Source of the DNA: Dudresnaya verticillata
Taxonomy: Eukaryota
DNA length: 64,000 nucleotides
Assembly (NCBI GenBank): GCA_977862235.1
Contig: OZ374559.1
Coordinates: 2,356,001-2,420,000 of the forward strand
Direction of reading: 5' to 3'
Both the position numbers and the translations under genes were made by a program. How positions within the stretch are numbered: the stretch's first letter is position 1; each line of letters begins with the position of its first letter. Shown here one piece after another: positions 5,732-64,000 of this stretch. Below the pieces are notes generated by a model, which ran no database searches, was not told where the DNA came from, and saw only the letters and a list, made by a program, of their open reading frames with translations.

Positions 5732-6145
5732 CTAACAATAGTAGATATACCAATAGCAGGAGCGGTAGCAATAGCACCGGTACGGAGAACAGATACACCT
5801 GTAGCGGCAGATAACACGCCTGCAAAGCCCACGAGATGTGGCCTGAAGCGACTGCTTCTCGTTCGCGGTAAGGCTACGAACAAGCTCCTCTTTCTTGTCG
5901 GCGCTTTCCTGAAGCATCCTGGCGGAGGTCTCCGTCTTGGAAATGAAACAGCAGGTCTTACCCAGAGATCCATCGGTCGACAACTCTGACTTGAAGACAT
6001 GGCAGTGGGAGTATCCGTCCTTGGCACATTCTTTGGCGGCCTTACCCTCGTCGTCGCCTTCATGGATTTTGCATGGGCAGTCGGGAGTGGCTGTGGCGAC
6101 AGCGAAGAGGGCGAGCAAGAGGGCGAGCAAGAAGAACTTGTTCAT
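5732..6145 (-). CDS. Secreted cysteine-rich peptide precursor, copy 1 (137 aa)
   Basis: Signal peptide MNKFFLLALLLALFAVATA, a 6-Cys domain, a charged linker ending TSR, and an 8-Cys core GLCRRVICRYRCICSPYRCYCYRSCYWYIYYC. The ORF is intact in three paralogs. Confidence 0.88.
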   Translation of the reverse strand: MNKFFLLALLLALFAVATATPDCPCKIHEGDDEGKAAKECAKDGYSHCHVFKSELSTDGSLGKTCCFISKTETSARMLQESADKKEELVRSLTANEKQSLQATSRGLCRRVICRYRCICSPYRCYCYRSCYWYIYYC

Positions 6146-11601: not shown

Positions 11602-11602
11602 C

Positions 11603-29740: not shown

Positions 29741-29743
29741 GGT

Positions 29744-33230: not shown

Positions 33231-33268
33231 GTGCCCCAGAGCTCCTGTACAGGAGTAACAGTGAGCTT

Positions 33269-36984: not shown

Positions 36985-37356
36985 AGATGTGTGGTCACCC
37001 TGTACAGGTTTCGCAACTGACCCAACATTTCCTTTCTTCTCAGTACCCGTACGGGCCTTTTTGCGAGCGAAGTATTCATCTCTAAGACGTTTCTTGTCCT
37101 CTTCCGAGCTTTTTGTACAGTCCCGTAGCCAGTGGAACTCATTACAGTCCGGGTTCAGGCATGGCGGCGTGTCGCCTCCGCGCTTACCCTTTCCATCGAA
37201 TTGCCGGACGGCTTTTCGTTACGTCCAACAAGAGTATCAGCAGTACTGCCCGAGCCGTCCTTGCCGCGTTTACCCTTATTACGGCCGCGCCCCAAGTTAC
37301 TCTGACGGGTACCCGTAGAAGCAGTAGGCGGAGGATCATCTCGGACGAGCTTTGCA
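36985..37356 (-). pseudogene. gag: G2 Gag, C-terminal part
   Basis: Continues the gag beyond the G3 insertion; zinc-knuckle-like CLNPDCNEFHWLRDC. Confidence 0.7.
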
Positions 37357-37361
37357 GTCCT

Positions 37362-38147
37362 TGTAGTATAGCTGTCAGCACACTATCAGCAGCGGCTGTA
37401 AGGTATGCTGGCAGCGCCGCACTGTAATGGTGCACACGATGACGCCCGCTGGCGAGTCGTGGTTGGGCAGCGTGCCCTTAGTTTTTTCGTTGAATTAGTA
37501 GCGGTCGACCGCATTGCTGCCGGCAGCGGCCGCGCGCCGTGCCGCACACGGCGCGCCCCTGTTATCACACCTGTGACGCTCTCCGGCATCGAGCCGTTGA
37601 GAGGGCCGCTGCCCGTTACGCCCCGCGCGCGCCCACGGGTAACCGTTACCCGGACGTATCGACACGTGTATGGGCGCGCGCTCGCACACCTCCCGCATTG
37701 GTGTTGTGGGGCGCACCTACTGTAGAAGTAGTCGTAGTGCACATAGTGTAGGGTATTTAAGACCGTCGGCCATCGACGGCTCAGTAAACCGGGCAAGCAA
37801 AAGCTCGCGCTGAAGCTTGCCCCCAGCCTTTTCGGGTTCGATCCCTTTGCCTTACGCCAGCGGGCGGTTTCCCTTTTTCCCCTTGCCTCGCTAGGCTTTC
37901 CCCTTTCCTTTTCCTTTCCGTCGGCTTCGTGCCGCCCTTCGACAGGGACGCTAGGATCCGGCCGCTGCCTACCCGCGTACGCTACGCCCCGTGCACGCTC
38001 CAGCATCGACACCGTTGATCCGCACCTGCGAGGCGCACGCGGCCGACACCGCTCTACCAACCCCAACAGCTACCCATCGACGGGTCTGTGTGGCGGCTTC
38101 GGACCAGCAAGTATCAGACGTCGGATCGACCCGACGTCTATACTACA
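37362..38147 (+). repeat. G3 5' LTR
   Basis: Direct repeat of 49843-50628; ~21 mismatches by eye. Confidence 0.96.
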
Positions 38148-38148
38148 C

Positions 38149-38161
38149 TGGTCTCCCGACC
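38149..38161 (+). promoter_or_regulatory. G3 primer-binding site
   Basis: TGGTCTCCCGACC, identical to G1. Confidence 0.8.
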
Positions 38162-38214
38162 TAGAAGTCGTCGAGACTCAAGTACTTCTCGCATCGACGC
38201 GATCGCAGTAAAGG

Positions 38215-40502: not shown

Positions 40503-40653
40503 GATTCCCCTCTCCTTTTGACACGCCTCCGCGATCGACGCGAGGCGCCTCAGGGGTTACGAAACACCCAATCGGAATCGAGCAAGAAAGTTCGGATTCC
40601 GAGGATAATTCTGACCGGGTCGATCCGGAAAAAGAATAAAGGCGGCGCCGCTC

Positions 40654-43600: not shown

Positions 43601-45194
43601 GGACGACTGCGACGACGTCGACCTTTTCGACCTTGGCCGCATCGACGCGAGCCAAGAGCCGACGGACCTCACCCGGGTCGAACCGGTGAAGCTCCCTTCA
43701 CCAATAACCGTCGAGGAATTGGTGGATGCGCAGCGGCGCGATTCTTTTTGCCAAACAGTGTTGGCACGGCAGTCCCGTCGACGGGATAGCCACTTCTTCG
43801 AGGACGAGGACGGGCTCTTGTGCCGGCGTCACCCCGTCATCTCTTCGTTGGAGCAAATAGTGGTGCCCGAAGCGCTACAGCCGCGGCTTCTCACGCTCGC
43901 GCACCACTCCCTCCTGGCTGGCCACCCTGGCCAGAACAGGATGTTCTACACGCTCCGCGAGAGCTACTACTGGCCACACATTTCAGCGGACATAGCCATG
44001 ACAGTTCGGAACTGTCGGCACTGTGCCAGGAACCGCATACGCTTGCGGAGGTCCCTTCATCGGTTGAAGTTGTTCCCGGCCACGAGGCCGCTCGAGTCGC
44101 TCGCGATCGATATCCTAGGGCCGCTGCCCAAGACGAAGTCAGGAAAGCGATTCCTGCTCGTCATGACGGATCGATTCACGAAGCTGACTCAAGTAGCGCC
44201 GCTGCGCACCATCACAGCGTACCACGTCGCAGTGGCGTTCTGTGAGAGGTGGATCTTCCACCATGGACCACCGAGGTCTCTGTTGTCCGACAACGGGAAG
44301 CAATTCACCTCTAAGTTCTTTCAGGCAGTGTGCCGCTACCTCGGACTGAACAACGTGTTCACGTCCGCCTACCACCCGCGGGCGAACGGTCAGGTTGAGC
44401 GCTACAACCGGACCGTCATGGCCATGTTGAGGAATTACATCAACGATCACCAGGACGACTGGGATCGATACGCAGCGGCGTTGACGTATTCCTACAACTA
44501 CCATGTCCATCGCACGACGCGGACGACACCCTTCAGCCTCGTGCTGTCCCGGCCGCCGCCGGAGTTCACTAAGTTTCATAAGGCAGCGGCCAGACCGAAA
44601 CCTAGTGAGGACGTGCGCGCGGACTTCCTCAAGCGGCTCGACGCCGCCTTCGCAAGCGCATCGAGCGCTCTCGACAAAACGCAGCGGCGTGACAAGAAAG
44701 ACTTCGACAAGCGTGTCAGAAAAGTCAACTCCCGCATTCGAGCGGGAGACTACGTCTTCATTGACGCGAGCGACGGGGTTAAGAAACCCAAGAAGCTCCA
44801 GAGCCCAGCGATAGGGCCCTACCGCGTGCTGCTTAACGACAAGCGCACGCTGTTTATCGACAGAGGCGGCTTGGTCGAACGCATCGCAGCGGACCGCGCC
44901 GTCTACTGTCCCCCGCCGCTGCGGGAGGATACTGCGCAGCGCAGCGCCTACTTACCCACCACTGAGGAACTCGCGTCCAAAGCCGTCGACGGCCCGCGGT
45001 TCGTGGTGGATAAGGGCCTTGACCACGGTACAGCCGACGATGGCACGCTCTTGTTCAAGGTGAAGTGGACCGGCTATCGCAAGCCGACGTGGGAGCCACG
45101 TTCCCATCTCCCCGAGGAGATGGTGAGCCACTATTTCGCATCGCAGCGGCGGCGAAACACCAATCGGCTCGAAGCCGTTCGCTCCTCCTCATAA
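40654..45194 (+). pseudogene. pol: G3 Pol (PR-RT-RH-IN-chromodomain), frameshift ~43135
   Basis: VDTGSG, YLDD, ETDASAY, GHPG..C..C, SDNG, NGQVER, VKWTGY..TWEP. Confidence 0.95.
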
Positions 45195-46517
45195 CCCCTC
45201 GGCGGGGGCGCCTCGCGCTTGAGGAGGGAGCCGCAGGCATTCGTTGCCTTTTTGCAAAGGCAATCGATGCCTCACCCTACCATGCGCTGGGCACCGAGCC
45301 CAGACAGGTCACCCTTGCGCCAGCAGCAGCGGCAGCAGCGCAAGAGGGGGGCAGCAGAACGCTGATTCCGGCGCATCGATGCGCGCAGGGCCGCTTCCAG
45401 CTAACCAAGCCTGGGGCAGCGGCCCCGGGCTGGTTGCACGCACTCGCAGGCGGCGAGGAGACGCAGCCGATACCTCGCCTTCGCGCGTGAGAGGCGTCGA
45501 CGCCTCACGCACGCAAGGTAAGGGGCGCTGACCAACGGCTACCGAAGCCGCTCATCAGCGCCGCGCACGCGGCGCTACCGTCGCTCACTCCAGTGCAACC
45601 CTACGCGCCAGCCGCAGCGGCTGCTGAGCGAGGAGGGGTCACACCAGCGTGAGTGCGGAGCGGGCGCGTCGACGCGCCCAAGGCCGTCGCTGTCGAAGCG
45701 AAGTGGTGTGGGACAAAGGGCAGCGGCCCGATCGCCATTTCACTCGGATGCACCGGAGTGCCGTTGCACTCGATGTGCAACGGCACCCCAAAAGCGAGCG
45801 TCACTTTTGGCGTGCGCCTCGGCGCGGGGCGCACGCAGCGCATCGAGCGCGAAAAGTGTTCCGGCTACAGTACGTACTGTAGCCGCGGGTCGGGAAACAC
45901 CCAACCAGGCCAGCGGGCCGGAAGGCAACAGCCAATGCAAGGGGTTGCGAAAAAATCCCCAGCAAACGATTGGCTAAAATTTCGGCGCAAACCGCCTCCC
46001 GGCGGGAGCAACAGCAGCGGCTGATCGAGTAGCCAGAAGCAGCACGCCGCCGGCAAGTGGGTGCGAGGCAGCGGCCTTGCCGAAGCTAGCCGCCGTGGCA
46101 CCAGGCGCCCAAGACGGGCGCGCAAGTGCAGCCACTGTGGTCTCCCCCATGCCAAGGCGGCATCCCGCGCAGCGGCGCCGGGGCACCACATGGGATCGGC
46201 ACGCTTGCCTATTGCCCCTGAGCAGCGGCTCACGCAAGCCCCGCACGACCGCTGTCGTGACGCAGTGGCGACGCACGCGGGCTCGATGCGCGCGCGCGCG
46301 CAGCACTCACCTTGGGCAGCGGCCCGACGTGGTGAGCTGCTGCGCCGGCGAACGCTCTCGCCACAAATAAGTTCGCATCGACGCGGGACGAAGCCATATC
46401 CCACCCCTTTCCCTTTTAACATGTCTAACGACGCAGCGGCGTAACTGGACTAAAAGGCGCAGCGGCGCTCTAATCGCTGGGTGCCGCGGCACCCGCGGAT
46501 ACTATGAGTCGATCGCA

Positions 46518-49500
46518 CTATTGGGCAGCGTTGCCCCCGGCCCCCGCTTCCGGCTGAGCAGTCATCGACGACACAAAGCCAGGGGCGGAGGGTTCATAAC
46601 CGGTCGCCTCGGCCGCAGCGCGCGGCTGAGTTGGCGCGGCAGCGCCCGCCGCGGCACCCGACGCGTGGTACACCGCAGCGGCGCCAGCGGCAGCGGCCGC
46701 TAACCCAGCAGGGCTCACTTGCCCCACTGGGGGACCATACCCCTGCGGCATGTAGCCCGGGGGGACGGGCGCAGCGGCGCCCGGCTGCTGTGGGACTCCA
46801 CTGCCCTGCACCACCATCGACGGGGTGTAACCGGAAGGCCCCCATGGGAGCATCTGGCCGGTGGGCCTGACGGCATAAGGCAGCATCGGTTGCTGTGCAG
46901 CCTGCGCTGGCGCATATGACGGCATCGGCTGCTGCGTCAGCGCCAGCATCGGGGGCGGCTGGTACTCCTCTCGTGGCCGCTTGCCGAGGGACCCGACGAC
47001 TGGGGATGAATGGGCAGCGCGCCTCAACTCTTCCTGCAGTCGTTGCGCATCGTGCGCAAACCTGTCCCGCTCGGTGCGGTAGCGAAGGGCGATGGCGTTC
47101 GCAGCGGCGAGATCTTCATACGTTCCCGTTAGATGGGCCGCAAAGGCGGCAACGAGGTTCTGTCCCGCTCGGTGCGGTAGCGAAGGGCGATGGCGTTCGC
47201 AGCGGCGAGATCGTCATACGTTCCCGTTAGATGGGCCGCAAAGGCGGCAACGAGGGTGCGCAGCGGCGCGTCCTCACCCAACTGTACCAGCGCAGCGGTG
47301 CGGCGTACATTTTTGTCGCTCCAGAGGCTCGCTGCCATCGGCGCATCGAGTGCATCGGTTGTGGGCGGCGGCACATAGGCAGCCACCGCCATCGATGGCG
47401 GTGGGCCATACCTCACCGCCTGCCTCGACAGCGTATAGGCAGCGGGCAGCGGGTCGACTGCTGCCTGCTTCTCCTGACCTCCACCCATGGCGGCCGGGGG
47501 AGGTGGTCCACAGCTCGAGGTGCTGGTGCCGCGGCACGCGGCACCGGTGGCAAGTAGGGCTCGGCCTCCGAGGCCATAACGGCAGCGGCCGACTTGGATG
47601 CCCCACCTAGGCCCCGACGGGCGCGCGGCTTAGCGGCCCGCTCGACGCGGGCCATGTCCGCCATCGAGGCGTAGCCACGATCCTTCCGCGGCGCGCGTGC
47701 GCGTTGGATCTTGTGAAAGGTCCCCGCCACTGGGTTGACCCCGCAAATGAACGAACGCATCGACGCGTGTTGCAAAGTGGCGGCGACGGGTGTGCTTCTC
47801 TCTGGCAGCGGCCACGAAGCGCGTCGTGTTCAACAGCTGCTTGAACTCGAACGTCACCGAAGTGTTGTCCGGGACTGCCGCGTCTCGGAGGCGTGGGAAG
47901 CCCCGGCGCCCGCTGCGCCACAGTACATCGAGGTACACCAAAATGCGGTCGTCGAGGACCCAGCAAATTTCCTTCGATAGGATGTCGGAGGCGTAGCGAC
48001 GCCCCACCTCAAAGGCATACTCGTCGGAGCGCCTAGCGAGGAGCTCTCGACGAACTGCCTCATTCCCCGCCGCGGCGTAGTGGAAATATCGCTCGATGCT
48101 GGGCCACGGGACGATCATGCCAGCGGGCACGTCCCGGTGCGAGTACCACTCCGCGGAGGGAAACCACGACGCGTCGAGCGCCGGGTGCAAGCGGGCACCC
48201 GTGGTGATGAGCCCATCACTGGGGGCGCGGCAGGTGGCCCAGTCCCGCTCCCCCATGCACAGCCCGAGGATGCGGCGCGCGCAGTCGGCATTGGCCAGAC
48301 CGCGCGCCTCCTCCGGCGTCTCCTCGATGGGGACGTCCCTCAACCAGGCCAACGAGGCCGCGAGGGGCTTGTGGGACCCATCGACGGGTTTCACAAAGAG
48401 GGCTTCGGCGCCCTTATACACGATCAGCAGCTGCTTGATCGTGGTGACGAACGAAACGTCATACGGTAGGCCGTTCGGTACAAGCCATACCGGCGATGCG
48501 GGCATAAAGGCGTTGTAGGCAGCGGCCCCGCCATCGTCGCTCGCATCTGCCACGCGCAGGAGACGTTGGACGTCAATCCTTTGCACGGGCAACCGACGCC
48601 ACTGGTCCAGCGGGATCTGGTGGCGCGGTGGCTCCCACGCGAAGACAGTGGGAGGCAATGCGGCTGCATTGGGCACCGCGACACCGAGTCGCTGGGGCCC
48701 AATGGTCAGAGACACCCCTCGCATGGTGATCACCGGCAGAGGGGGAGCCACGACAGCGGCCGATGACGACTCAATGGCAGCGGCCACGCTTGTGCCAGGG
48801 GCGGTCGAGGTCCCTGCTCCGGGGTCACCTTGCGCCGATGCGCTGAGGCCCCGGCGGGGCATGAAGGGAGCCGCAGCGGGCGGCATCCTGCTCCCCCTTG
48901 ACGCGGAGGCCGTCGACGACCCCGTCAGATCAAGGGCACGAGCCACGGGTGGCGCATCGACGCGCGGAGCAGCAAAGGGTACAGCGACCGGAGCCGCCTC
49001 CTCTGGGCATGGGGCGGCAGCGGCCGCCCCACTCCGGTCCAAGCCACCCAAACCTCGCAGCGGCGTGTCTTGGGTGGCCACCTCGACCTCCTCGTAGCTC
49101 GGCAGAGGTCGGGTAGCCTTACCTTGGGCCAGCGCAGCGGCTGCTGGCTCCGGAGGCACTTGGGCGGGAGACGTGTCAACCGCAGCGGCGGCGGGACGCA
49201 TCTCCGATGTCTTAGCGGGCGCAGCAGCGCCCGCTCCAATTCGGTCAGCAGCTGCTGGACCGATATGCGCAGCGGCGCCGGCCCCAGCCGTCGGACCAGC
49301 AGCGCGGCCACTGGGCACACCGAAGCCGCCACCGCAGCGGGCGGTGGTCGTGGCGGCGCAGCGGCGCTTTCCCCCAGCGCATCCTGCGCCTGGGGTTGCT
49401 GGGTATCTGCCACCGCTTCCGCCGGTGCAGCCGTCGATGGCGCACCAGCGGGCAGCGGCGGCGTGGTTGCGGGCGCCCCTTCGTCAGGGGCGCCCCGGGT

Positions 49501-49524
49501 GGCAGACGAGCGCGTCTTGGCCAT
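46518..49524 (-). pseudogene. G3 antisense accessory ORF, frameshifted
   Basis: MAKTRSS start at 49524; A/P-rich N-terminus, W/Y-rich domain (47630-48700), P/Q-rich tail (46518-47027); same position as in G1. Confidence 0.7.
47062..47256. repeat. 98-bp tandem duplication
   Basis: CTGTCCCGCTCGGTGCGGTAGCGAAGG... starts at 47062 and at 47160. Confidence 0.9.
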
Positions 49525-49842
49525 ACCGCACGTCGACGTGGGCACTCGCGTCGAGCGAAGGGGGCGGAGAAGGCGTAGCACGATACACACACACGACAGC
49601 GGTCACTGGTATGCTGAAGCGTGTGGGCGAAGGGGGGGTCGTGGAGAGCGATACCCGCAACCTCCCCAGCGCTGACTCCGCGTTGATCCTTATATGCGCA
49701 GCGGCGCAGACGGGCGAGCACGCGCATACACCGTCGACGGGCGCGCGTGCCAATCACTGTCAACGGCCACTCGGGATTGCCATCGTGGCCCCGGGAAACC
49801 TCAACGGCCGTGAGCGGGGCGCTCACGCTTGAGGGGGGGCCG

Positions 49843-50628
49843 TGTAGTATAGCTGTCAGCAAACTATCAGCAGCGGCTGTAAGGTATGCTGGCAGCGCCG
49901 CACTGCAATGGTGCACACGATGACGCCCGCTGGCGAGTCGTGGTTTGGCAGCGTGCCCTTAGCTTTTTCGTTGAATTCGTAGCGGTCGGCCGGATTGCTG
50001 CCGGCAGCGGCCGCGCGCCGTGCCGCACACGGCGCGCCCCTGTTATCACACCTGTGACGCTCTCCGGCATCGAGCCGTTGAGAGGGCCGCTGCCCGTTAC
50101 GCCCCGCGCGCGCCCACGGGTAACCGTTACCCGGACGTATCGACACGTGTATGGGCGCGCGCTGGCACACCTCCCGCGTTGGTGTTGTGGGGCGCACCTA
50201 CTGTAGAAGTAGTCGTAGTGCATATAGTGTAGGGTATTTAAGACCGTCGACCATCGACGGCTCAGTAAACCGGGCAGGCAACAGCTCGCGCTGAAGCTTG
50301 CCCCCAGCCTTTTCGGGTTCGATCCCTTTGCCTTACGCCAGCGGGCGGTTTCTCTTTTTCCCCTTGCCTCGGTAGGCTTTCCCCTTTCCTTTTCCTTTCC
50401 GTCGGCTTCGTGCCGCCCTTCGACAGGGACGCTGGGATCCGGCCGCTGCCTACCCGCGTACGGTACGCCCCGTGCGCGCTCCAGCATCGATGCCGTTGAT
50501 CCGCACCTGCGGGGCGCACGCGGCCGACACCGCTCTACCAACCCCAACAGCTACCCATCGACGGGTCTGTGTGGCGGCTTCGGACCAGCAAGTATCAGAC
50601 GTCGGATCGACCCGACGTCTATACTACA
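49843..50628 (+). repeat. G3 3' LTR
   Basis: Direct repeat of 37362-38147. Confidence 0.96.
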
Positions 50629-50633
50629 GTCCT

Positions 50634-51368
50634 CAAGTTGTACTTCTCGAGGTCCGCAGCGGTGAGCTTGAAACCCTCGTGGCTAGACACCTGGTCGATC
50701 AGGCGAGCTTCTTCAACAACCTTTCGTACGAAAGAGTGAAAGTGTTTCTTGAGTTCTTCTCCCTTCTTCGAATGTAGAAGTCCTGCCATCTTGTGACGTA
50801 GATCTACATCAGGTTCGATCCTTAATAGATATTCCACAGCGAGCTTCGGTTCCTGTTCGGAGAACTCCTCGTACCCTATCTGTTCCAAAGCTTTGTTGGA
50901 TTCCATGAGTATTCCCCAAACTTCGGACTCTACAGTACTGTAAAGTGAAGGTTTGGTTAACTTCAAGTCCTTGAGAGTTTTTCCAACGACACCTAGATCG
51001 TAACGATCCGGCTCGACCAGAGCCTTCTTCTCGAAAAAGCTTTTGAGGTGATCCTCTGTCATTTCACCAACGGTGTCCACCGGAATAGTATCATCTCGAA
51101 CGATCGTCTTTAGGATGAACGAAGAGATTGAGTCCTTGTAGGTAGTTGGTAGAACATTAACATTCGAATCCAAGCTTTTCTCCGTAACTCGACGTTCGTA
51201 GATGTCGCGGTCCTTCTTGAACGAGATCAGATGCGCTGGTGACAGTACTGTCAGCCTTGGCGCTTCGATCGTCTCTACGATAGTTTGACGTACAGTAGCG
51301 CTGGTACCAGCTCCAGAAGGTCCAGCGTTTCCACGTCGAGGACGATTAGCAGCAGTCATCTTAATCAC
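50634..51368 (-). pseudogene. gag: G2 Gag, N-terminal part
   Basis: First ORF after the G2 5' LTR; cut by G3 at the TSD. Confidence 0.75.
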
Positions 51369-51419
51369 GATTCTGTATCTTCCACAGACGCACTATTTCC
51401 TCCCGGGAAAAGCAATTTC

Positions 51420-52012
51420 TGTGACAAGTGGGCACGTCCGTGTCCGAAACAGTCTCGCGTACGCGAAGACGAAAAGATAAAGTGAAGGATAGAGGCGGAA
51501 AGAGGAAGGTGAGTAGATGGGTATACCGCGCTGGTCGGGTCCGATGCAGTGGTTGCATGCCCTCGCCGTCGTTCGACGCCAGCGGGTTGCCTTTATTAAT
51601 ACTACAGCTGGACAGCTCTGTGCAACCCACAGTAAATGTGACTTGCGTACGCAAGCTCCGTTCCGAACAGCCATGGACAAGTGCCGCCACCGGCACCAGC
51701 CACCCCGACGTCGCCGGTGATGGACAGAAAGTCGCCCAGGTCCTCGCCTTAGTCGTAGGACCTGGCAGCAGGCCAATCATGTAGAAGGCATGGCAGCCCG
51801 GCGCATGTGCGCTGGGTCTGCATTGTGAGCGTACGCTACAGTAGAGCGCATCACTCGGAGCATCAGCATGGCGAGTCGGCTGAGTACTCAGCAGGCGTCC
51901 GTACTCTGTACAGAGCTCACTTCACGACGCCACAGCGGGTCGGGCGTTGTGCACAGGCGTCGGGGCTATTAGCCTGCGGGCGCTTCCGCGTGTTGCGCGC
52001 CCAGGGGTTACA
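51420..52012 (-). repeat. G2 5' LTR
   Basis: Direct repeat of 32638-33230. Confidence 0.95.
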
Positions 52013-52016
52013 GTAC

Positions 52017-53180
52017 TACACGTACCCTAAAAATACCGTTGAGAACCTGAAGTTTCCTTACTTGTTTTCATTCCACCCCCACAACGTACCAGTATTTTAT
52101 ACCACAGCGAAACACTGCATTTACGTCATAGGATTGCCATTTGTTTCAACGGCATCAACTATTGCCTATGCACACCACCTGTCATGAATTCAGCCTGGAT
52201 ACAAAGCCCTACGGGAACGCTTTCTTCAAGTTTACAACAACAAATCCTATCGTAAGTATGCGGGGCAATCAGTGCAAGGTGCAGTGCGAACACCCAAACG
52301 CAGCGCCCACCAAACAATCCGAGCAACTCTGTTTTTGCAGCCTACATTCTAAGAACGGCGCTGCTTTTAAATCCCGCATGCGTGTGCCTACGACATAAGA
52401 AAGAAGAAACTTTTGAAACAGAGCCACATCTATGTGTAACTATGATCAACTGAACTGAGCATGAGCAGGTGATACATTATCGTCTCTTTATCTTTGCCAG
52501 TTCAACACCAGGCACTATCAAGACTTGTACTTCTCGAGACGTATTGCCTGCTGTACTATTGGTAGCAATGGTAGTATTTGTAGTATTGGTACTATTGACG
52601 TGGATCGACCTACGTGTTCTAACAAAAGTCCTTACGCCAAATGCAGGAGCGGTAGCAATAGCACCGGTACGGAGAACAGATACACTTGTAGCGGCAGATA
52701 ATACCCCCGCAAAGCTTACGAGGTGGGGCCTGAAGCGACTGCTTCTCATTCACGGTAAGGCTACGAACAAGCTCCTCTTTCTTGTCGGCCCTTTCCTGAA
52801 GCATCCTGGCGGAGGTCTCCGTCTTGGAAATGAAACAGCAGGTCTTACCCAGAGATCCATCGGTCGACAACTCTGACTTGAAGACATGGCAGTGGGAGTA
52901 TCCGTCCTTGGCACATTCTTCGGCGGCCTTACCCTCGTCGTTGCCTTCATAATTTTTGCATGGGCAGTCGGGAGTGGCTCTGGCGACGGCAAAGAAGGCG
53001 AGCAAGAGGGCGAGCAAGAAGAACTTGTTCATGTTGAGAGGAGGTAGCGAACAACGGCTGTTGGTTGGTAGTGTTGGTGATGAGTGAACAATGAAAAACT
53101 GAGCGTGCGAAGCTTGGTGCGTTTGAAAAGTGTTGAAACGCATTCTACTGAGGTTGATGGGTCGTATATATATAGGTTTT
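52017..53180. repeat. Tandem unit copy 2, last segment
   Basis: Matches 5321-6293; at 53183 the sequence jumps back to the equivalent of position 4678. Confidence 0.9.
52619..53032 (-). CDS. Secreted cysteine-rich peptide precursor, copy 2 (137 aa)
   Basis: ATG at 53032 by homology; core KLCGGIICRYKCICSPYRCYCYRSCIWRKDFC. Confidence 0.88.
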   Translation of the reverse strand: MNKFFLLALLLAFFAVARATPDCPCKNYEGNDEGKAAEECAKDGYSHCHVFKSELSTDGSLGKTCCFISKTETSARMLQERADKKEELVRSLTVNEKQSLQAPPRKLCGGIICRYKCICSPYRCYCYRSCIWRKDFC

Positions 53181-53918
53181 TAGCACTTGTATTCGCGGCC
53201 ACGATGACAACCAGGAAGGTCTACGGTACAACAGGCGCGATAAAATAGAGTTTGTCATTCCCATTCCTCCTCTGCACACGGTTTGATCCTCTTGTTTAGA
53301 GGTTGGAAAGTGGATAAACTGCGAGTAGAAATATTAGGGACTGATAGGGTTCCTTGGAAGTGAAAAGAAATGGAAGCCTTTACTTGTAAATAGAACTCCA
53401 TTTGACAAACCGATGACAACTAAGATAAGAGGATAGAAGCACTTCTAGGCGCTCTTGTCAAGGTATAGGAAGGAGGAGGAAAAGGATGAACTTGTGAGTG
53501 TCAAATCCTTAGGGAGGGAGGGCGGGAAAAGGATGAACTTGCGGAACTCTCTACGAAGAGTTTCCGGCTCCCTTAAGTACAGCCTAGATGTCCCCGAGAG
53601 TAGCGTACAAGGCATTGCGGAGTATCGTTCGGCAGTCGTATTGGGAGTCACTGTTGTTGACACCATTTTCGGCACTGTACCCAAATTAGCGTCCTGCATT
53701 TGTGAACCATCTTGAGTCGGCGTCAATCCTGGTGACAACTATTCGGTGGACCATATACAGTACCCTAGATACCCCTTCGGGACGCTCAGCGAAGTTCGCT
53801 GTTCTTGGTCAGTCTTTTCATACCTGTAAAGCGGCATCTTTGACACAACATGGAAAACCGATTTCGGAGACGATGTAGAGCGGCAGGGACTAGAACATGG
53901 AGAGCTACACGTCGTAGT

Positions 53919-54960
53919 CTATTGCAGGGACGGGAGTGTTGTGCTTGGGAAGAGCGACCAGAAGTAGCGCTCCATTTCCGAGTCTTGACGGAGTCGACCG
54001 TCGAAGTAAACATTGATGACCATTCTGGATGTGCGCCAACCCCCACGTTGAACAATCACCGGGAGCGGAACACCTAGTAGGACTAAAGCCGTCGCAGCAC
54101 CGCTTCGCAAACTGTGTGAAGCATAAAACCCAAACGCCGGAGGCACCACTGATAAACTCTCTAGGATGTTTTGCAAAGCTCGGGTCACACATTGTGGGGA
54201 CATTGTCATGCCATCCAGTGACCAATACAAACTCGATGGAGAGGAGAATGTCTGGTGCTTAAAGAAAGAATCCTGCAGTGCCAACGCGTTATCTTCTCCT
54301 GATCCGGCACAAACCAGTGCGTGAGCCTCAATGCCGCGGACCGGGCGGCCTTTGAAGGAGCGTGGGCGTGCGGATATCGAAATGTAGGCTGTAGTTACCG
54401 AGGTATAATGCGTAACCGATACATCCTGCTTTTCAATAGACCGTGCAGACGATTCACACCACATCATGAGGTACTGAAACTCTATAAGAGCCGAATCGCG
54501 GTGCAGAACGGAACCCGCCTTCTGTGTCAAGCCGAAGCATCTAATACGCCATATGGTAGACCCGGGGAGGGCCACACGAACATCTTGTAGTGATCTTCGT
54601 CCGTCGTCCTCCCGTTTAAAAGCCCGAACGAGGTCGCTCAGTGCTGGTCCCTGGCAAGGATCTGGAACTCCGTCGCGTTGATGCCTTGTCCGTATAGCCG
54701 AGACGTAATGCTCGATAGATCGGGAATGCACTCTCCCTTCTTCGAAAAGGAATCCGACATATGCCAGGACAGACCCTTTGGCCGCGGGCAGTGCCATGAG
54801 GTCTTCCTGCGCACAGAACGTGGCGAACTTCTTCCACTGGCTTGACTTCAAAGCCCCTGTCGTGGAAGCGAGTGCAGATGAAGCTAGTCTTCGGCTTGCG
54901 CGCCCAACCGAAGTTCTAGGGAGCTGAGTCTCGATGGAAGCTTGGACTGCTGCTTGTGCC
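53919..54960 (-). CDS. D2 tyrosine recombinase domain (catalytic R appears as C)
   Basis: SQWKKFATFC, MMWCES, HSLRSG, RGGW, INVYF; fused in frame to RNase H by the deletion. Confidence 0.8.
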
Positions 54961-54969
54961 GGGGTCCAA

Positions 54970-56448
54970 CTTCGGGGGGGAGGGTTCCAGAGTCTGCTCT
55001 GGCCGTCTCCCCAGAACTCTCCCAGTTGCGCCTTGATTACCTTGGCTCGAGCCGCCGGGGCGTCCCCTAGAGGCCAATAACGCCGCACCCGCTGAAGCTG
55101 CAAGGACTCCTGCAACGATTGCATCAGTGAAGGAGTCGCTTTCAGGTCCTTCGGATTCCAGGTACGGCTGAGGCGATCCGCATGCTTGTTGACCGCGGAA
55201 GGAAGCCATACGGCGCGTAGGGTGACTTTCATCTCCACTAAGACTTGGTGAAGGGCGCGTAGCTCGTCCATTAACTCCGGGGTACTGGATACCATGTTGT
55301 TGATAATATAAAATACGCTCATGTTGTCCACATGTAGAATCAGCCTCTCGTGGGTACCAGAGACTCGAGCGTGGACTAGATCGGACTGAAATGAGAGTCG
55401 GACTGCTAAAAGCTCGCGGTGAGTAATGGATTTGAGACGCAAGAACGGAGACCATATACCTTGAACTTACACGTCTCCGGGAGAGCCAGCAGCCATATTC
55501 CGCCCCAGTGTTCCTCCAAAACCTACATCTGCAGCGTCCGTGTGCAGGTTCCAATGTGGGTTGCCGCCACCTATCAATCTGCCATCCCCCTGTAGCATAT
55601 GTCGCCAAGCCTTGAGATCTCGAAGGCCTGCATTTGAAAGGCGCACACATTGCTCCGGATACCTTCCTCTCCGCGGTTTGGAGTTCTTCATGTCGTCGTA
55701 CAAGCTCCTCGTGGAGAAACGTGCAAGAGGGAGGGGGAGCAGCTGGGATATAGCGCGTCCCGTAAATTCTGCTATAGCCCGCTCCCGTACCCACCGAGAA
55801 CCTTTGGCTGCTGTCTTGAGCAAGTACGCCCCATGATCTTGCAGTTTCCCTAGCTTCTCCTGGGTTACAAAGTAGCGAAATGCTACTGTATCTATTGTAA
55901 CTCCGAGATGTGACAGGGTAGTGGCGCCGGATCCCCAGACGCCTTTGGATGGGTGTCTCAATAATCCCAGTCGGTTGAACAGGACGTCCAGAGCTGACGA
56001 GAGACCCTCGCAGTCCTTTGAGGTGCTGGGCGAAGAACCGTTTCCAGGGACGAGGAGGTAATCGCCTATCCTTTGGAGGACGCGGCAATACAATGCAGAG
56101 CGCATATACCGAGTCAGCGGACTTAGGAGATGGCAAAACCAGTAGGGTGACCTCGTCCAACCGAAAGGTAATGCAATGCAGCGGTAGAAACCGCCGTCGT
56201 AGTGAAACAAGAACCAATCCCACATGCGTGAGTGGAGTCGGAAATGTCGATATCCACTCTTCCAGTCGAACGACAGCATGTGGTCCCCTTGAACAAGGCA
56301 GGAAGCAAAGGAGCTGAGCGATTCCATCATAACAGTATTCTTGTCCCAATGCGATGACTGGCGTTTTAGGTTGATAACGAATCGACCTTTGTCATCGGTC
56401 TGAGACGTTCCCACTCGGAAATGAGCGTGACACCTTTACCAACTTGTT
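54970..56448 (-). pseudogene. D2 RT-RNase H, 5'-truncated, TAA at 55467
   Basis: GRFVINLK, ALPFGWTRSP, degenerate RIGD at the WIDD site, HTDAADVGFGG, WNPPP. Confidence 0.88.
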
Positions 56449-56780
56449 GGAAAAGGATGAACTTGCGGAACTCTCTACGAAGAGTTTCCGGCTCCCTTAA
56501 TTACAGCCTAGATGTCCCCGAGAGTAGCGTACAAGGCATTGCGGAGTATCGCTCGGGAGTCGTATTGGGAGTCACTGTTGTTGACACCATTTTCGGCACT
56601 GTACCCAAATTAGCGTCCTGCATTTGTGAACCAATCTTGAGTCGGCGTCAATCCTGGTGACAACTATTCGGTGGACCATATACAGTACTCTAGATACCCC
56701 TTCGGGACGCTCAGCGAAGTTCGCTGTTCTTGGTCAGTCTTTTCATGCCTGTAAAGCGGCATCTTTGACACAACATGAAA

Positions 56781-58331
56781 CAATTTTCCCGTCTCAAATT
56801 CGCTTGTCCGCAGGGCTTTGAACGAAGAGGCTCAAGAGTGTCTTTACGCATGACACCAGTGCCTAAACCGCCATTGAAGCCGCATTCAAACCCTGTTCGC
56901 TTCCAAACCATGTGTTAGCATAAACAGGCTGTACGGCCGTACCAGCTCCGCAGCCATCTCCCCTTTCCCCAAACCCTTCTATTTCTCTTTCCACTCTACT
57001 CTCAAAGTCCTGCTCGAGGTCGAATCAAGAAGATAAAGCAGGTCACAGGCAAGTGGTACTGGTAAATGCGTTGGAATAAAATAGAAGCAAGCAAGCGTTA
57101 CCTTTATTTCAATCTACGGATCGATCGTAGGAAGGGAAGTAAATGGTAAATGCCCAATCGCCACTAAACACTAAAAATAGCAGCAAGAAGAACGAGCCGG
57201 AACTGCAGTTCCGGTATTGTTAGATAGGGCGGTAGGTACTACACGTACCCTAAAATGCCGTTGAGAACCTGAAGTTTCCTTACTTGTTTTCATTCCACCC
57301 CCACAACGTACCAGTATGTTATACCACAGCGAAACACTGCATTTACGTCATAGGATTGCCATTTGTTTCAACGGCATCAACTATTGCCTATGCGCACCAC
57401 CTGTCATGAATTCAGCCTGGATACAAAGCCCTACGGGAACGCTTTCTTCAAGTTTACAACAACAACTCCTATCGTAAGTATGCGGGGCAGTCAGTGCAAG
57501 GCGCAGTGCGAACACCCAAACGCAGCGCCCACCAAACAATCCGAGCAACTCTGTTTTTGCAGCCTACATTCTAAGAACGGCGCTGCTTTTAAATCCCGCA
57601 TGCGTGTGCCTACGACATAAGAAAGAAGAAACTTTTGAAACAGAGCCACATCTATGTGTAACTATGATCAACTGAACTGAGCATGAGCAGGTGATACGTT
57701 ATCGTCTCTTTATCTTTGCCAGTTCAACACCAGGCACTATCAAGACTTGTACTTCTCGAGACGTATTGCCTTGTGTACTATTGGTAGCACTGGTAGTATT
57801 GGTAGTATGGGTAGTATTGGTACTATTGACGTGGATCGACCTACGTGTTCTAACAATAGTAGTAATACCAATAGCAGTAGCGGTAGCAATAGCACCGGTA
57901 CCAAGGAGCACAGGTACACTTGTAGCGACAGACAAGAAGCCTGCAAAGCCCACGAGATGTGGCCTGAAGCGACTGCTTCTCGTTCACGGTAAGGCTACGA
58001 ACAAGCTCCTCTTTCTTGTCGGCCCTTTCCTGAAGCATCCTGGCGGAGGTCTCCGTCTTGGAAATGAAACAGCAGGTCTTACCCAGAGATCCATCGGTCG
58101 ACAACTCTGACTTGAATACATGGCAGTGGGAGTATTCGTCCTTGGCACATTCTTCGGCGGCCTTACCCTCGTCGTCGCCTTCATGATTTTTGCATGGGCA
58201 GTCGGGAGTGGCTCTGGCGACGGCAAAGAGGGCGAGCAAGAGGGTGAGCAAGAAGAACTTGTTCATGTTGAGAGGAGGTAGCGAACAACGGCTGTTGGTT
58301 GGTAGTGTTGGTGATGAGTGAACAATGAAAA
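56781..58331. repeat. Tandem unit copy 3, main segment (continues at 62968-63251)
   Basis: Matches 4871-6209. Confidence 0.9.
57850..58266 (-). CDS. Secreted cysteine-rich peptide precursor, copy 3 (138 aa)
   Basis: Core GLCRLLVCRYKCTCAPWYRCYCYRYCYWYYYYC; one extra codon in the turn. Confidence 0.88.
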   Translation of the reverse strand: MNKFFLLTLLLALFAVARATPDCPCKNHEGDDEGKAAEECAKDEYSHCHVFKSELSTDGSLGKTCCFISKTETSARMLQERADKKEELVRSLTVNEKQSLQATSRGLCRLLVCRYKCTCAPWYRCYCYRYCYWYYYYC

Positions 58332-58780
58332 GGAAATGTAGCCTTTATTCTTAAAGACCCACTTCATTCAGAAATGAGTAATGCAAAGAAAGTCTATTTC
58401 TGCATTGTTTTGCCAGGTCTGCATGACCAGGATGGACGGTAACTTGTGAACTTAAAGTCTGTGTGAAAAGGAGCGGGTGGGTGGGAGAAAGGACGGAACT
58501 TACCACGGTAGATTGGTGGCTCTAGGACTGTTAATGTCCTTATATGGAGGCCTCGAACATTCTGCGTTGGTCCTGTTCTCGTTGGCTTGAGCGCATTCAT
58601 CCTGATGGCATATCGGGATTGCTCATACGATATATATAACAGAGTATCGACGAAAGTATCGTTGATAGCTTATGATCGATAAACCGTAGAACGATCGGCA
58701 TTGCTCTCTATCCTTAGTAGCACCTTTTCATTTCCGTACAGGCTTTACAGCACACGAAAACCCATAACGGAGAGGGCGTT

Positions 58781-59833
58781 TCAGGAACGCCTCGGAGCAC
58801 CTTGCGGGGGAGGTGCCGAGTTTGAAGGGATGAGGCACCGGAAATAATGGACCATTTTCTGTGTGAACTTCAGTCTTCCATCAAAATAAACGTTCGTGAC
58901 CATCCTGTCCGAGCTCCATTGGCCGCGCTGTACGACTACTGGAAGAGGAACCCCTGCCAGGATCTGGCTTGACACCGAACCACTACGCAAGCTGTGAGAT
59001 GCGTAGTAACAGTGTGGTGGGGGATGAACTTGGAGATTATGTAAAAGGCGACGTAATATGTTGGTAACATCCTGTGGGGATGGTACGGTTCCCTGATACG
59101 ACCAATACTGTTCCGTCAGTGGCGTGTTCAGTTGCAAATTAAAGTAACGGAGTTGCAAGGCTAGGGCATTATTGCTGCCTTCTCCATAACAGGTTAGAAT
59201 ATTTGCAGGAGCTCCCCTCACTGGTCTGCCTTTCATATTGCGAGCTCGGGCTGAGATAGTGAGTGCTGAGTTATCTGTGTCGTCTGATGGTGAACCGATC
59301 CACATTTCCACGTCTTCGCGCCGCAGTGTTCGGGCTGAGCTCTCCCGCCAAGACATGAGGAACTGGAACTCTACCAACGCCGCTTGATATTGGATCTCGG
59401 AACCGTCCTCTTCTAGTAGTCCCAAGGTACGGATTCGATATAATATTGAAGCCGGCAGTGCGGCACGGGTATCTTGCAGCTGACCTCTTGCGTCGTCAGC
59501 CCTAGCAAATGCACGGGAAAGATCCTTATGGGCCTGTCCTGTACAGGGATCAGCCAATTGGTGCCTCTGGTGTGTAGTTCTTATTGTAGATAGATAGTGT
59601 TGTAGGGAACTTGAGTGTACCCTACCTTCCTCATAAAGATAACCGATGTAGGCCAGTACTGTTCCAATGGACGCTGGAAGGGATTGGTGTCCTTCTAACT
59701 CACAGAAGCGTTTGAATTTTTCCCACTGGGAGGACTTAGTAGCATCGGTACTGTGGGCGATAGAATGCCGGGATAAGTCAAGTGATGCTCGTCCAGCTGG
59801 TGTATTGGGAAGTTGAGACCTGATAGATTCCAT
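58781..59833 (-). CDS. D3 tyrosine recombinase (catalytic residues intact; true start uncertain, frame open to 60538)
   Basis: SQWEKFKRFC, MSWRES, HSLRSG, RGQW, TNVYF. Confidence 0.88.
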   Translation of the reverse strand: MESIRSQLPNTPAGRASLDLSRHSIAHSTDATKSSQWEKFKRFCELEGHQSLPASIGTVLAYIGYLYEEGRVHSSSLQHYLSTIRTTHQRHQLADPCTGQAHKDLSRAFARADDARGQLQDTRAALPASILYRIRTLGLLEEDGSEIQYQAALVEFQFLMSWRESSARTLRREDVEMWIGSPSDDTDNSALTISARARNMKGRPVRGAPANILTCYGEGSNNALALQLRYFNLQLNTPLTEQYWSYQGTVPSPQDVTNILRRLLHNLQVHPPPHCYYASHSLRSGSVSSQILAGVPLPVVVQRGQWSSDRMVTNVYFDGRLKFTQKMVHYFRCLIPSNSAPPPQGAPRRS

Positions 59834-62006
59834 GATATACCCGGAGGCCGCACGCCGACCTCTGCCAGAATTAGAGACCAAGCTGGGTTGGGGTGATGGG
59901 TGCTGAACAATGGCCCCTGCGATGGTTTCAGCTTGCGTACCGAGAGAGTGATGCACTGTAAGAGCCGCCACCAGTTCGTCCCGGGCCAGAACGGGGCGAC
60001 CAAGATTCCATGTGCTTGCTCGCGCTTGATCTTCATTATGGTCGCTGAGAGCCATTGTGGAGGTGGGTTCCAGAGTCTGCTCCTCCCGTCCCCCCAACTC
60101 GCGTTGAATTGAGCGCGGATTGTCTTCATCCTGGCTGCGGGTGCGTCTCCCAAGGGCCAGTACCGGCGGACCTGCTGCAACTGGAGTGATGTGGTTAGCG
60201 ATCGCAAGATGGAGGGCGTAGCTCTCAGGTCGTGGGGATTCCACGTCCGACTCAGGCGGTCTGCCCATTTGTTCACTGCCGAGGGGAGCCATTCGGCCCT
60301 GATCTGGATTTTCATCCGTTCTAGAAGGTGGTTTAGCCTGCGGAGTTCGTCCATTAGTACCGGACTGGACGAAACCATGTTGGTGATAACTCTCAGGACG
60401 ACCTGGTTGTCTACGTGCAACAATATTCTTTTGTTGCATCCTGTTAGTACCGCCGATACTGCTGCGTCCTCTAGGGATTTTCTGACGGCCACTAGCTCTC
60501 GTAGGTTGATTGATTGTAATCGCCGGAACGGAGACCAAACGCCCTGCACCTCGATAGATCCTGGTGCCCCGGGTGTGAGGTCTCTCCCTAAAGTGCCCCC
60601 AAAACCGACATCTGCGGCGTGTAGCGAGTTTCGGAGTCGCAGCGTCGCGTCAGGAAAAAGAGCTCGAGCCTCCCGCTCGGAGGCTCGAACCTGCGACCTT
60701 TCACCCTGTGCTGGGCTACTCCACACGGCTCACAGACGACTAGACCAGATAGGTTCTAGTACGCTCTCTCCTTCCCGCTCGCAGAGCGGAAGGGTGTGCT
60801 TATAGCGCAGGGCGTTAAAGGCGTCGGTGTGCAGGTTCCACGAATCTCGGCCGCCGTACAGTAGGCGTCCGTCCCCCTGTAGCATTGTGCGCCAAGACCG
60901 TAAGTCCCTTAAGGATTGGTTTGACAATGACACGCGACGTCCCTTTCCAACCCCCCGTCGGGGGCGGTCTCGGAGGTCCGTATAAAGCGAGCTGGTAAAG
61001 CATCGGGCAAGGGGGACTGGAAGCAGCTGGGATACAGCTCTGCTCGTGAAGGAGACTAGGAGTGACTCGCTCACATATAGACGACCTGTAGTGCTCTGCT
61101 GTAGTAGTAGGGATGCCATTCCATGAATTGATTCCAGTTTCTGCGGTGTTATGTAGAAACGAAACGACTCGGTGTCTATTATCACTCCTAGATGTTCTAT
61201 TCGCGTGGCACCGGGGCCCCAAACCCCTTTTTCCGGATGGCGGAGCATCCCGAGCTTTGCAAAAAGGTTGTCGAGGATATGACAGATATGGCGACAGTAC
61301 TCGGGCGTGCTTGGACTGTCGTCGGTCCCAGGGGCTATGAGATAGTCGTCTATCCAGACCAAGACCCTTAGTCCCATCTTCTCTCTCATGTATCTCGTTA
61401 AAGGGCTCAGTATATGGCAGAACCAGTAAGGGCTGCGCGTCCACCCGAACGGGAGGGCTATACAGCGGTAGTACTGTCCGTTGTAACGGAAAATAAACCA
61501 ATCCCACATACGTGGATGTAGTCGAAAATGACGGTATCCAGACTTCCAGTCGAACGACAGCAAGCGGTCCCCCCGTACTAAGCAGGATGAAAACGAGCTC
61601 AGCGACTCCATCTGCACGGAACGCTTCCGCCAATGTTGACTCTGTTTTTTCAGATTGATAACGAAGCGAGGTTTCCCTTTTGCCATTCTACAAATGCAGA
61701 CGACACCAGCTTGCCTTGATTTACGCAGCGCTTGGCATATTTCGGACTGATGAGTTGATAATAGCCCAGCTCGCACCCTTGTTCGAGGTCCTTGGTTGCA
61801 AATTGAAGGTCCTCGGGTGACTGAGGTATTTGTGGAAGGATTAAGCCCTCGGTAAATGGAATATCCGCGGGATCGCAGATACCGTACTGTAGCAGGCGGA
61901 TGATGTAAGCTGTTGCTCCGATCATCTTCCACGCCAGGGATTTCTTCTGAATGTGGAACCAACGGCCCTGTGACCAGGACTGCATCGACGAGGAGGGCTC
62001 CACCAT
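59695..62006 (-). pseudogene. D3 RT-RNase H-MT, frameshift ~61680 and a solo-LTR insertion
   Basis: WIDD, LPFGW, HTDA|ADVGFGG split by the insert, INLRELVA, WNPPP. Confidence 0.9.
60620..60819. mobile_element. 200-bp solo LTR-like insertion
   Basis: Splits HTDA/ADVG; flanked by GGCG (60616-60619, 60820-60823); ends TGTAGCG..CGTTAAA, i.e. TG..CA with one change. Confidence 0.7.
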
Positions 62007-62029
62007 GATCGATGCGAGCGAATCCCTGT

Positions 62030-62629
62030 TTAGGATTCCTTGGATTTCGCGGAACTCCCTTTTGTCTCCGCGTTACCAACCTCCTGTTTAGCCAGTGATT
62101 TGGCTGTCTCGATAGTATACTTCGCAGATAATTCCTTAAACACAGAAGAATAGATTTCAGACGGAATCTGTTCCCGTTGTGCCACCACTTTTGTCTCGAC
62201 CAAGTCAGCCAGCTGTCGAGCAATTGCAGGGCCCTTCTCCAAAACAGTCTTGAAATGCGTCGTGCGCATCGCCAGCACCTCTTTGGCACCTTCCAAAGAC
62301 AGGAAAACAAGTTTAAAGAGACGTCCCTGTTTTGCAGCATCAGCCTCGACCTCAGCGAGGACAAACGCTTCGAGAGCCTGCTCGACCCAGGCGCCTGCTG
62401 CGTGGATGTACTCCAGCTCTTTGCCGTTGCGGCGGTCTTTGCGGTAGGTCTCGCGGTACAAGACTGTCTCTGGTTTAAAATAGCCTGTCTGATTAGGTTG
62501 TACGATCCCCGATCGGGGCCAAAGTGGTGCTCTTCCGGCGAGTTGAAGATCACTAAGGCGATTAATAACGTCAGTGTAATCAGTCGCCTCGGGACTGAGG
62601 AAGTGATCTGTTGGTAGAGCATTACTCAT
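62030..62629 (-). CDS. D3 ORF1 (gag-like, 199 aa)
   Basis: First ORF after A1; homologous to D0 and D1 ORF1. Confidence 0.82.
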   Translation of the reverse strand: MSNALPTDHFLSPEATDYTDVINRLSDLQLAGRAPLWPRSGIVQPNQTGYFKPETVLYRETYRKDRRNGKELEYIHAAGAWVEQALEAFVLAEVEADAAKQGRLFKLVFLSLEGAKEVLAMRTTHFKTVLEKGPAIARQLADLVETKVVAQREQIPSEIYSSVFKELSAKYTIETAKSLAKQEVGNAETKGSSAKSKES

Positions 62630-64000
62630 ATTCTGAAGGTTCACACTGTAAATGACCAGCGTCTCCTTTCGACTCAGAGAACAACTCTGAAGAGAAAGGA
62701 CGGAACTTACCACGGTAGATTGGTGGCTCTAGGACTGTTAATGTCCTTATATGGTGGCCTCGAACATTCTGCGTTGGTCCTGTTCTCGTTGGCTTGAGCG
62801 CATTCATCCTGATGGCATATCGGGATTGCTCATACGATATATATAACAGAGTATCGACGAAAGTATCGTTGATAGCTTATGATCGATAAACCGTAGAACG
62901 ATCGGCATTGCTCTCTATCCTTAGTAGTACCTTTTCTTTTCCGTACAGGCTTTACAGCACACGAAAAACTGAGCGTGCGAAGCTTGGTGCGTTTGAAAAG
63001 TGTTGAAACGCATTCTACTGAGGTTGATGGGTCGTATATATACAGGTTTTGGTTTGGGGACTACTCAGAATAGGGACATTGGGATAGCGATAGAATATTG
63101 ATAGCGGTTGCGATGCTGTTTCCTTATGGCACGGTTGGTATGCTATGAAGCGTTTGTAAGGCTTACAATGCGTATAATGCGTTCCCACGCGTGGCTCGAC
63201 GTCTTGAGGTGATTTGGTGCTGGGCACTGGAGCTGCCTCATTACCAGCTCTGTAAACTAAACACAACAGCGAATGTGAGGTGTTGTTGAAGATGTAATAA
63301 TAGACCACGTCCACCTCCAGAGTCAGTTGTTGTGAATATCATACCCCGCACGCAACATACACTCCTTGAATCGCCACAATGAACGCAATCGACCAAGTTG
63401 GACGGAAATGAAGCTTGGCTGCAGGACTGGCCGCAAATTGCAACACTGGGTGTGCCTCGAAATGGGCCTTAGTTGCCCGCACAGGACCACGTTAAACAAA
63501 ATAAACAATACAACCTGACAACGGTGACGAAGATCGAGAGTGCCGGTCAGGCAGTCCGGCACACCAGCAATGGCCTGGGCACTTGTTGTCGCGTTTTCCC
63601 ATAAGTCACAGCTCTCTGAATTTGTTGTCATTGCATAGGCCTCTGCACCTATTGCTTTCGGTAGGTACATTGCCGAGGCCGGAGGTTGGTTGGTCGTCGT
63701 CTACTAACACACGAGTTTGCCAGTAGATGGCCGCTAAAATACCCATTAGCTGAAGCCACCGCGGTACAGTAATTGGACAACGGGAGTTGTCTCTCCCATG
63801 AACCGCGTGGGAAACGATCATCGCGAAGGTGAAGAAGACGAAGAGAGCTTATTAGCCGAGGCAGCGAGGATGGGAAAAGTTGAGATACATACGTGCAGAT
63901 ATGTTTACATCGTCAAGTGAGTGAAGCGTTCAAGGAAATTATACATAGTAGGGCTCTCCAATCTGTGCGCACTCCTCGCCGCTGCCCTCGAGGCACGAAC

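Follow-up and report, generated by a model that had tools for sequence, protein, structure and literature searches.

Evidence for episodic positive selection on a putative cationic hairpin core in a tandem gene triplet of the red alga Dudresnaya verticillata

Why do neighbouring gene copies with closely similar surroundings differ so strongly in the last codons of their reading frames, and what might the encoded peptide do? This question is raised by a window of 64,000 nucleotides of the Dudresnaya verticillata genome (contig OZ374559.1, positions 2,356,001 to 2,420,000), in whose coordinates all features are given below. Self-BLAST and reading of the junctions revealed three intronless paralogs on the minus strand, A (5732..6145, 137 aa; core 5735-5830), B (52619..53032, 137 aa) and C (57850..58266, 138 aa; core 57853-57951), in tandem units split by nested mobile elements. 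By its sequence, the locus is a young tandem triplet, and tblastn found no fourth paralog in the window. B, the fast-evolving copy, opens with a signal-peptide-like segment, recognised by eye from its basic start, hydrophobic run and A-x-A end (codons 1-19, 52976..53032, minus strand like all parts of B). This is followed by an N-terminal domain with six Cys (codons 20-70, 52823..52975), modelled as beta-alpha-beta-beta with low confidence (pLDDT ~40), and by a linker ending at Arg105, the putative processing site (codons 71-105, 52718..52822); domain and linker together are net acidic. The core (codons 106-137, 52622..52717) has 32 aa, eight Cys, a net charge of +6 and a predicted beta-hairpin fold. 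Codons 51-80 are identical in A, B and C over all 90 nt (~52793-52882 in B) and include a K-T-C-C motif that is also invariant in distant homologs; purifying selection, conversion or chance could account for this.

The 5' regions of the copies differ. A TATA-like run lies upstream of B (53165..53174, minus strand), and B has lost its upstream DNA from ~6 nt beyond this run: at 53180 the similarity to the DNA upstream of A stops and gives way to the downstream flank of unit C. The loss could have changed the expression of B. The leader of C carries a 4.6-kb insertion at a GAAAA site, 65 nt upstream of the ATG, which separates the ORF from its TATA-like run. The inserted DNA is a reverse-transcriptase element (58332..62962, minus strand), classed as DIRS-like from its likeness to the window's other tyrosine-recombinase elements. 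A is the sole copy with neither the truncation nor the insertion in its 5' region.

As a clock for the divergence of the copies, we used 1139 ungapped noncoding columns from seven flanking segments, excluding TE insertions and gap columns. A and B differ at 23 of these (2.0%), A and C at 30 (2.6%) and B and C at 32 (2.8%), in agreement with a first-pass annotation of this DNA, which had put the flanks only a few percent apart. The LTR pairs of the elements exclusive to B's flank are 0.3, 2.2 and 2.8% diverged. Since the latter two values match the divergence of the paralog flanks, the clock is credible, and these comparisons indicate that the separate existence of B's flank is about as old as its divergence would suggest. 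The unit has a mosaic ancestry. When 4678-6293 is compared with the B and C units, a breakpoint falls near A-position 5339-5368: B resembles A on the far downstream side, and C around and inside the gene (max-chi 14.5, permutation p 0.0002). A 184-nt segment with short similar ends is present in the flanks of B and C (52149-52331, 57371-57553) and missing from A, which suggests a microhomology-mediated deletion.

The window's mobile elements comprise three LTR retrotransposons, one terminal-inverted-repeat element and DIRS-like elements with reverse transcriptase and tyrosine recombinase, a make-up that we take to recall florideophyte genomes. The Gypsy reverse transcriptase is 57% identical to that of Agarophyton chilense, which is not among the closest in the best 120 of 3189 matches. 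The LTR elements lie at 10838-24157, 32638-52014 and 37360-50628 (LTR pairs 0.3%, 2.2% and 2.8% diverged, respectively), the third lying inside the second. A chromodomain integrase and a long additional minus-strand ORF (21181-23160, 659 aa) are encoded by the first (13.3 kb); the nested one has an extra ORF (47630-49201, 523 aa) and a 96-nt tandem duplication (99%, 47062-47255); neither ORF has a Pfam match. Two DIRS-like elements (53361-56780 and 58327-62967) lie in otherwise intact copies of known flank. Both have a short A-rich sequence at each end (TGAAA, GAAAA) that is single at the empty site of unit A, and a GAAA-type target preference is suggested. Their internal direct repeats (332 and 276 nt), which start ~155-160 nt inside the left end, are presumably Ngaro/PAT-like split repeats. 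The 7.2-kb element at 25105-32263 is bounded by terminal inverted repeats of 494 nt (91% identical), has a target duplication of 3 or 5 nt and contains a 216-nt near-perfect palindrome (96%, 26407-26622). Within it are fragments of cellular genes, one from a WD40 gene (27598-27957) and one, broken and with a weak Pfam match, that is 2-hydroxyacid dehydrogenase-like (29137-29601). It looks like a Pack-type DNA transposon, although no transposase was found in it.

The first-pass annotation had reported an excess of amino-acid changes limited to the C-terminal core of its copies 1, 2 and 3 (A, B and C here), with the Cys retained. A codon alignment reproduced its counts. A and B differ at 16 nt in 12 of the last 35 codons, all nonsynonymous, with no synonymous difference. 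The cores of A and C differ by 9 nonsynonymous nt in 8 codons, one synonymous change (Cys113, TGC/TGT) and one 3-nt insertion, which lies inside codon 121 of C and adds a Trp at the hairpin turn. The products of B and C differ at 5 amino acids within residues 1-102 and at 16 within the last 36, the insertion being counted among the latter. All eight core Cys are unchanged across the three copies. Rate tests used the 102 core nt that remain once codon 121 and the inserted codon of C are excluded. Core pN was 0.22 for A/B, 0.12 for A/C and 0.27 for B/C, which is 5-11x the flank rate (~10x, ~5x and ~10x, respectively), with 0, 1 and 1 synonymous differences at ~28 sites. In residues 1-102, pN ranged over 0.7-1.8x the flank rate with no significant departure in any comparison, and pS was 0.02-0.06. 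Among the 23 variable core sites, B alone differs at 13, C alone at 7 and A alone at 2; the remaining one is three-state. Relative to A, the changes in B form two clusters on either side of codons 112-130, where only 1 nt of 57 differs: codons 103-111 (52700..52726, minus strand; 7 nonsynonymous nt, 0 synonymous) and codons 131-136 (52625..52642, minus strand; 8 nonsynonymous nt, 0 synonymous). Assembly error was judged an unlikely source of the core differences, since errors would spare neither synonymous sites, Cys nor stops, all of which are spared here.

Selection was assessed by pairwise counting methods on the three close sequences, with kappa from 1 to 3. Within the core, nonsynonymous changes were in excess for A/B (16 against 0 synonymous; Fisher p 0.003-0.006) and B/C (20 against 1; p 0.004-0.007), while A/C alone was not significant (p 0.15-0.18). 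The probability of at most one synonymous change among 24 core changes was 0.004. When gene A was evolved neutrally in simulation and the best 35-codon window was taken, 16 was reached in 0/20,000 runs at both 2.0% and 2.8% divergence, in 1/20,000 at 4% and in 92/20,000 at 6.8%. Assigned to lineages, the core changes of B (13/102 nt) far exceeded those of its flank (12/1139 nt; p 8e-9) and those of C did so less strongly (7/102 against 19/1139 nt; p 0.004); A changed at about the flank rate (2/102 nt; p 0.26). Taken singly, the two B clusters were marginal (p 0.057 and 0.069). Cys codons make up a quarter of the nonsynonymous core sites and none was altered (p ~0.001-0.002 for 23 changes), so that B was still constrained. 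Collectively, positive selection on the core is well supported by these sequence comparisons, and the signal, which is probably adaptive, appears episodic, lying mostly in B and more weakly in C. Selection at some point in the history of the B core is very likely, and we consider it likely that it acted on B itself, after this duplication.

Searching 1.84 billion representatives for homologs gave four matches. Three were full-length, the Logan proteins P0001-P0003 (E 6e-28 to 3e-19, 48-51% identity to the query), each a single-member cluster. The fourth, P0004 (sturgeon, 1586 aa, E 4e-5, 26%), covers residues 30-94 only and was excluded from every alignment. A or C and P0001-P0003 were 41-57% identical in the N-terminal domain and 20-42% in the linker, against 63-80% in the core; the core of B was 34-54% identical to P0001-P0003 and 34-66% over the family set. 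At positions 104, 109, 131, 133, 135 and 136, B alone differs while the five other members are identical. Since the core, B apart, is the region of highest identity across homologs, it is an old conserved module of which B is a recent outlier. Arg105 is invariant in 6/6 members, preceded by T/S-S in five and by P-P in B. Eight of eight core Cys are present in A, B, C, P0002 and P0003, and six of eight in P0001. Core net charge is +6, +6 and +5 in A, B and C and +6, +6 and +7 in P0001-P0003. There are 8-13 Tyr per 32-33 core residues in A, C and P0001-P0003 and 4 in B; the R:K ratio is 6:0 in A, 4:1 in C and 4:3 in B.

These comparisons indicate that the first-pass framing of a conserved prepro region with a hypervariable core is wrong at the level of the family. 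The prepro region, which has a six-Cys domain of its own that was absent from that annotation, is the least conserved part of the family and evolves at the flank rate with no constraint seen, so that it is merely young. Hypervariability is likewise no family trait of the core, as that of A is nearer to the distant homolog P0003 (28/35 identical) than to its paralog B (23/35). The proposed arms race would need recurrent selection and an antagonist and is unsupported; a burst on B with a weaker one on C fits neofunctionalisation after duplication equally well.

Other searches placed the family in no known group. For A, B and C, Pfam gave only a sub-threshold Gloven match to the linker (E 0.03-0.06), an assignment that we rejected at that E-value, and for P0001-P0003 it gave no family. 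The six-Cys pro-domain had no Pfam match, to BRICHOS and cathelin included. A word-based search with A confirmed 0/73 candidates, a profile search over 2527 candidates recovered P0001-P0003 and nothing else, and the ESM Atlas gave no usable match for A or for the P0002 core. In the PDB, the best match by sequence was an unrelated helix (E 0.046), with none to the core, and the best by profile had E 0.14. Among pattern matches, 0/521 from metagenomes, 0/603 from viruses and 0/80 from prokaryote genomes were confirmed as related loci, and an exact 27-nt pattern had 0 matches in metagenomes. The literature searched, much of it in partial text and with limited coverage of subscription journals, describes no such peptide family in red algae, and the family appears undescribed.

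AlphaFold2 predicted a hairpin for the core of A from its single sequence (core pLDDT 90-94) and the same hairpin for B from a 6-row alignment (core pLDDT 69-88), with strands at 107-119 and 124-136 and a four-residue turn; outside the core, both models are of low confidence (pTM 0.20-0.25). The predicted register, i+j=243, would pair C113-C130, C117-C126 and C119-C124, with C108-C137 as a diagonal pair. In P0001, Tyr replaces Cys at 113 and at 130 alike, so that the two members of a predicted pair are missing together, as the register predicts. With this register, Arg on strand 1 of the family would stand opposite Tyr on strand 2 at 109:134, 110:133, 114:129 and 116:127. All 11 B-specific residues fall outside 112-130 (post hoc p 3e-5), and the two clusters of B would come together at the hairpin's open end, where 131-136 faces 107-112. 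There, R109G would lie opposite K134 and R110G opposite R133, both basic residues being newly gained, and four tail Tyr are lost (from 8 in A to 4 in B) while the net charge is kept at +6. The changes in C fall on strand 1 and the turn. The pI of residues 20-105 of A-C is 5.3-5.9 and that of the core ~9. Foldseek returned no match at E≤0.001. A wide fold search with model A alone gave a best Z of 2.7, with all rows on the low-confidence N-terminal part and the hairpin barely probed; among the unrelated rows was a pine defensin (Z 2.5, rmsd 3.5, 45 aligned). The CS-alpha-beta defensin motif has C-x3-C in its helix and C-x-C in a strand; in the model of the N-terminal domain (pLDDT ~40), one Cys only lies within the predicted helix.

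The reading of the locus as a whole that we favour, by a modest degree, is that of a processed cationic defence hairpin. The precursor would be secreted, with its acidic six-Cys pro-region masking the cationic core, and a cut after the invariant Arg105 would free a cationic 32-residue beta-hairpin. The freed hairpin may act on microbial membranes or walls through its Arg/Tyr face, binding anionic microbial surfaces by analogy with beta-hairpin antimicrobial peptides (AMPs), as the available text of a review describes them (PMC13001179). After duplication, A would have kept a family-type core at the flank rate and B would have been remodelled, which fits neofunctionalisation. A burst of positive selection on B, weaker on C, would have rebuilt the open end, likely for a new target; that the loss of Arg is offset across the strands, Tyr is lost and charge is kept suggests retargeting rather than decay. 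Whether the peptide is antimicrobial we judge, by analogy, to be an even matter. More tentatively, this could be the first gene-encoded beta-hairpin defence family of red algae: a long, Tyr-rich hairpin with a cystine ladder, for which the Cys-rich pro-domain would be a chaperone and whose open end would, in the young duplicate B, have been re-engineered through compensatory changes across the strands for a new microbial target.

The excess in B might instead owe nothing to selection: a low-complexity run of Tyr codons could have undergone a small number of multinucleotide or slippage mutations, which were then fixed in a redundant copy under relaxed constraint. Adjacent multinucleotide changes can mimic selection, according to the accessible text of one study (10.1101/165969). 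In B, 9 of the 13-14 changes sit in adjacent pairs or runs; by the three-way site list, adjacent same-lineage pairs number 4 in 23 core sites against 2 in 42 noncoding sites, and the doublets enriched in the core include two TA-to-AT swaps in the TAY-rich tail. Given the lost upstream DNA of B and the leader insertion of C, both copies may be weakly expressed. Collapsing doublets leaves a probability of no synonymous change of just 0.02-0.04, and if each B cluster is taken as one complex event, two in all, the excess over the flank disappears (p 0.32). However, the rate under relaxed constraint cannot rise above the neutral 1-2%, and B still exceeds its flank when adjacent changes are merged into single events (10 on B, p 3e-6) or the whole B tail is counted as one (7 events, p 5e-4). 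Five cluster-1 changes are isolated single substitutions beyond the Tyr run, Cys and stops are spared, charge is kept and the clusters are opposed in the predicted fold. We therefore regard a purely mutational origin as highly improbable. It is also improbable that an older B-type paralog, not seen here, donated the B core by conversion or unequal crossover, in which case the selection would predate this duplication. Recombination among the copies is real, as the mosaic unit attests, so a hidden donor is conceivable; moreover, A and B agree against C and all three homologs at two places, codon 129 and the first position of codon 134, and the changes in B are grouped in two patches. A donor at the observed A/B pN would, however, predict ~6/28 synonymous differences where there are none (upper 95% bound 0.10), which rejects the distant donor with matching synonymous divergence that the first-pass annotation had named as an alternative. 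The near-identity of A and B between the patches also speaks against a donor, a mismatch scan and tblastn found none in the window, and it would itself need a history of nonsynonymous changes only, that is, selection.

The selection may also be real and the peptide not antimicrobial. It would then serve at a surface, in adhesion or in recognition, with an Arg/Tyr face that binds polysaccharide or is Tyr-cross-linked, and in B it would have been retuned to a new partner such as cell wall, spore glue or gamete surface. The Tyr-rich cores and the cross-strand R:Y pairs along the hairpin in A, C and the homologs are in keeping with this. Aromatic rows of such kind bind carbohydrates. The deep conservation of the core would suit a fixed endogenous partner, and mussel MgCRP-I combines duplication and selection with no antimicrobial activity shown in the available text (PMC4558851). 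Against it, the layout of signal, acidic pro-region, single Arg and Arg-rich disulfide hairpin fits beta-hairpin AMPs in all but length, as far as the available review text goes (PMC13001179), and for tyrosine cross-linking in red-algal cuticles the literature, seen in part, yielded only a brown-algal review. We consider such a role possible but unlikely. It is textbook knowledge that duplicated secreted Cys-rich peptides come under positive selection, and the pattern by itself is therefore unsurprising. If the favoured reading of a red-algal defence peptide holds, the beta-hairpin class would be extended to a new lineage and to a longer, four-disulfide, Tyr-rich scaffold. The A/B pair also lends itself to direct testing, with 12 substitutions grouped at one end of a peptide of 32-35 residues and a background only 2% diverged.

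The central C-x-C-x4-C-x-C spacing of the A-C core recalls protegrin and theta-defensin. Like beta-hairpin AMPs, the core is cationic, uses Arg over Lys, is predicted to form a single hairpin with several Cys pairs and stands at the end of its precursor. The AMPs of this class covered in the available review text are protegrin, tachyplesin, theta-defensin, arenicin/alvinellacin and hepcidin, and the last has four disulfides, as would the A-C core (PMC13001179). Described members have 11-25 aa by the same partial source (PMC13001179), whereas the putative core, if it starts after Arg105, has 32-33 aa, and for this length we do not assign the family to beta-hairpin AMPs despite its AMP-precursor-like layout. 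It also differs in its 4-13 Tyr, C-x3-C extensions and six-Cys pro-domain, and in its red-algal host, which is outside the five phyla, animal and flowering-plant only, from which this 2026 review reports natural beta-hairpin AMPs in a main text that does not contain 'alga' (PMC13001179). With conotoxin-type peptides and MgCRP-I, of which the latter shows the same evolutionary pattern in the text available (PMC4558851), the locus shares duplicated prepropeptide genes, fixed Cys, an amino-acid excess in the cationic mature region and, by counting tests, apparent post-duplication positive selection there. Unlike in those systems, no purifying selection is detected on the A-C pro-region, which is conserved least of all parts in the family, the family core is deeply conserved with selection episodic on one or two copies, and the Cys pattern differs. 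P0001-P0003 are true homologs: although P0001 is without the C113/C130 pair and the B tail is absent from all three, the layout, the K-T-C-C motif, the invariant Arg105 and the Tyr-rich core are common to the A-C family.
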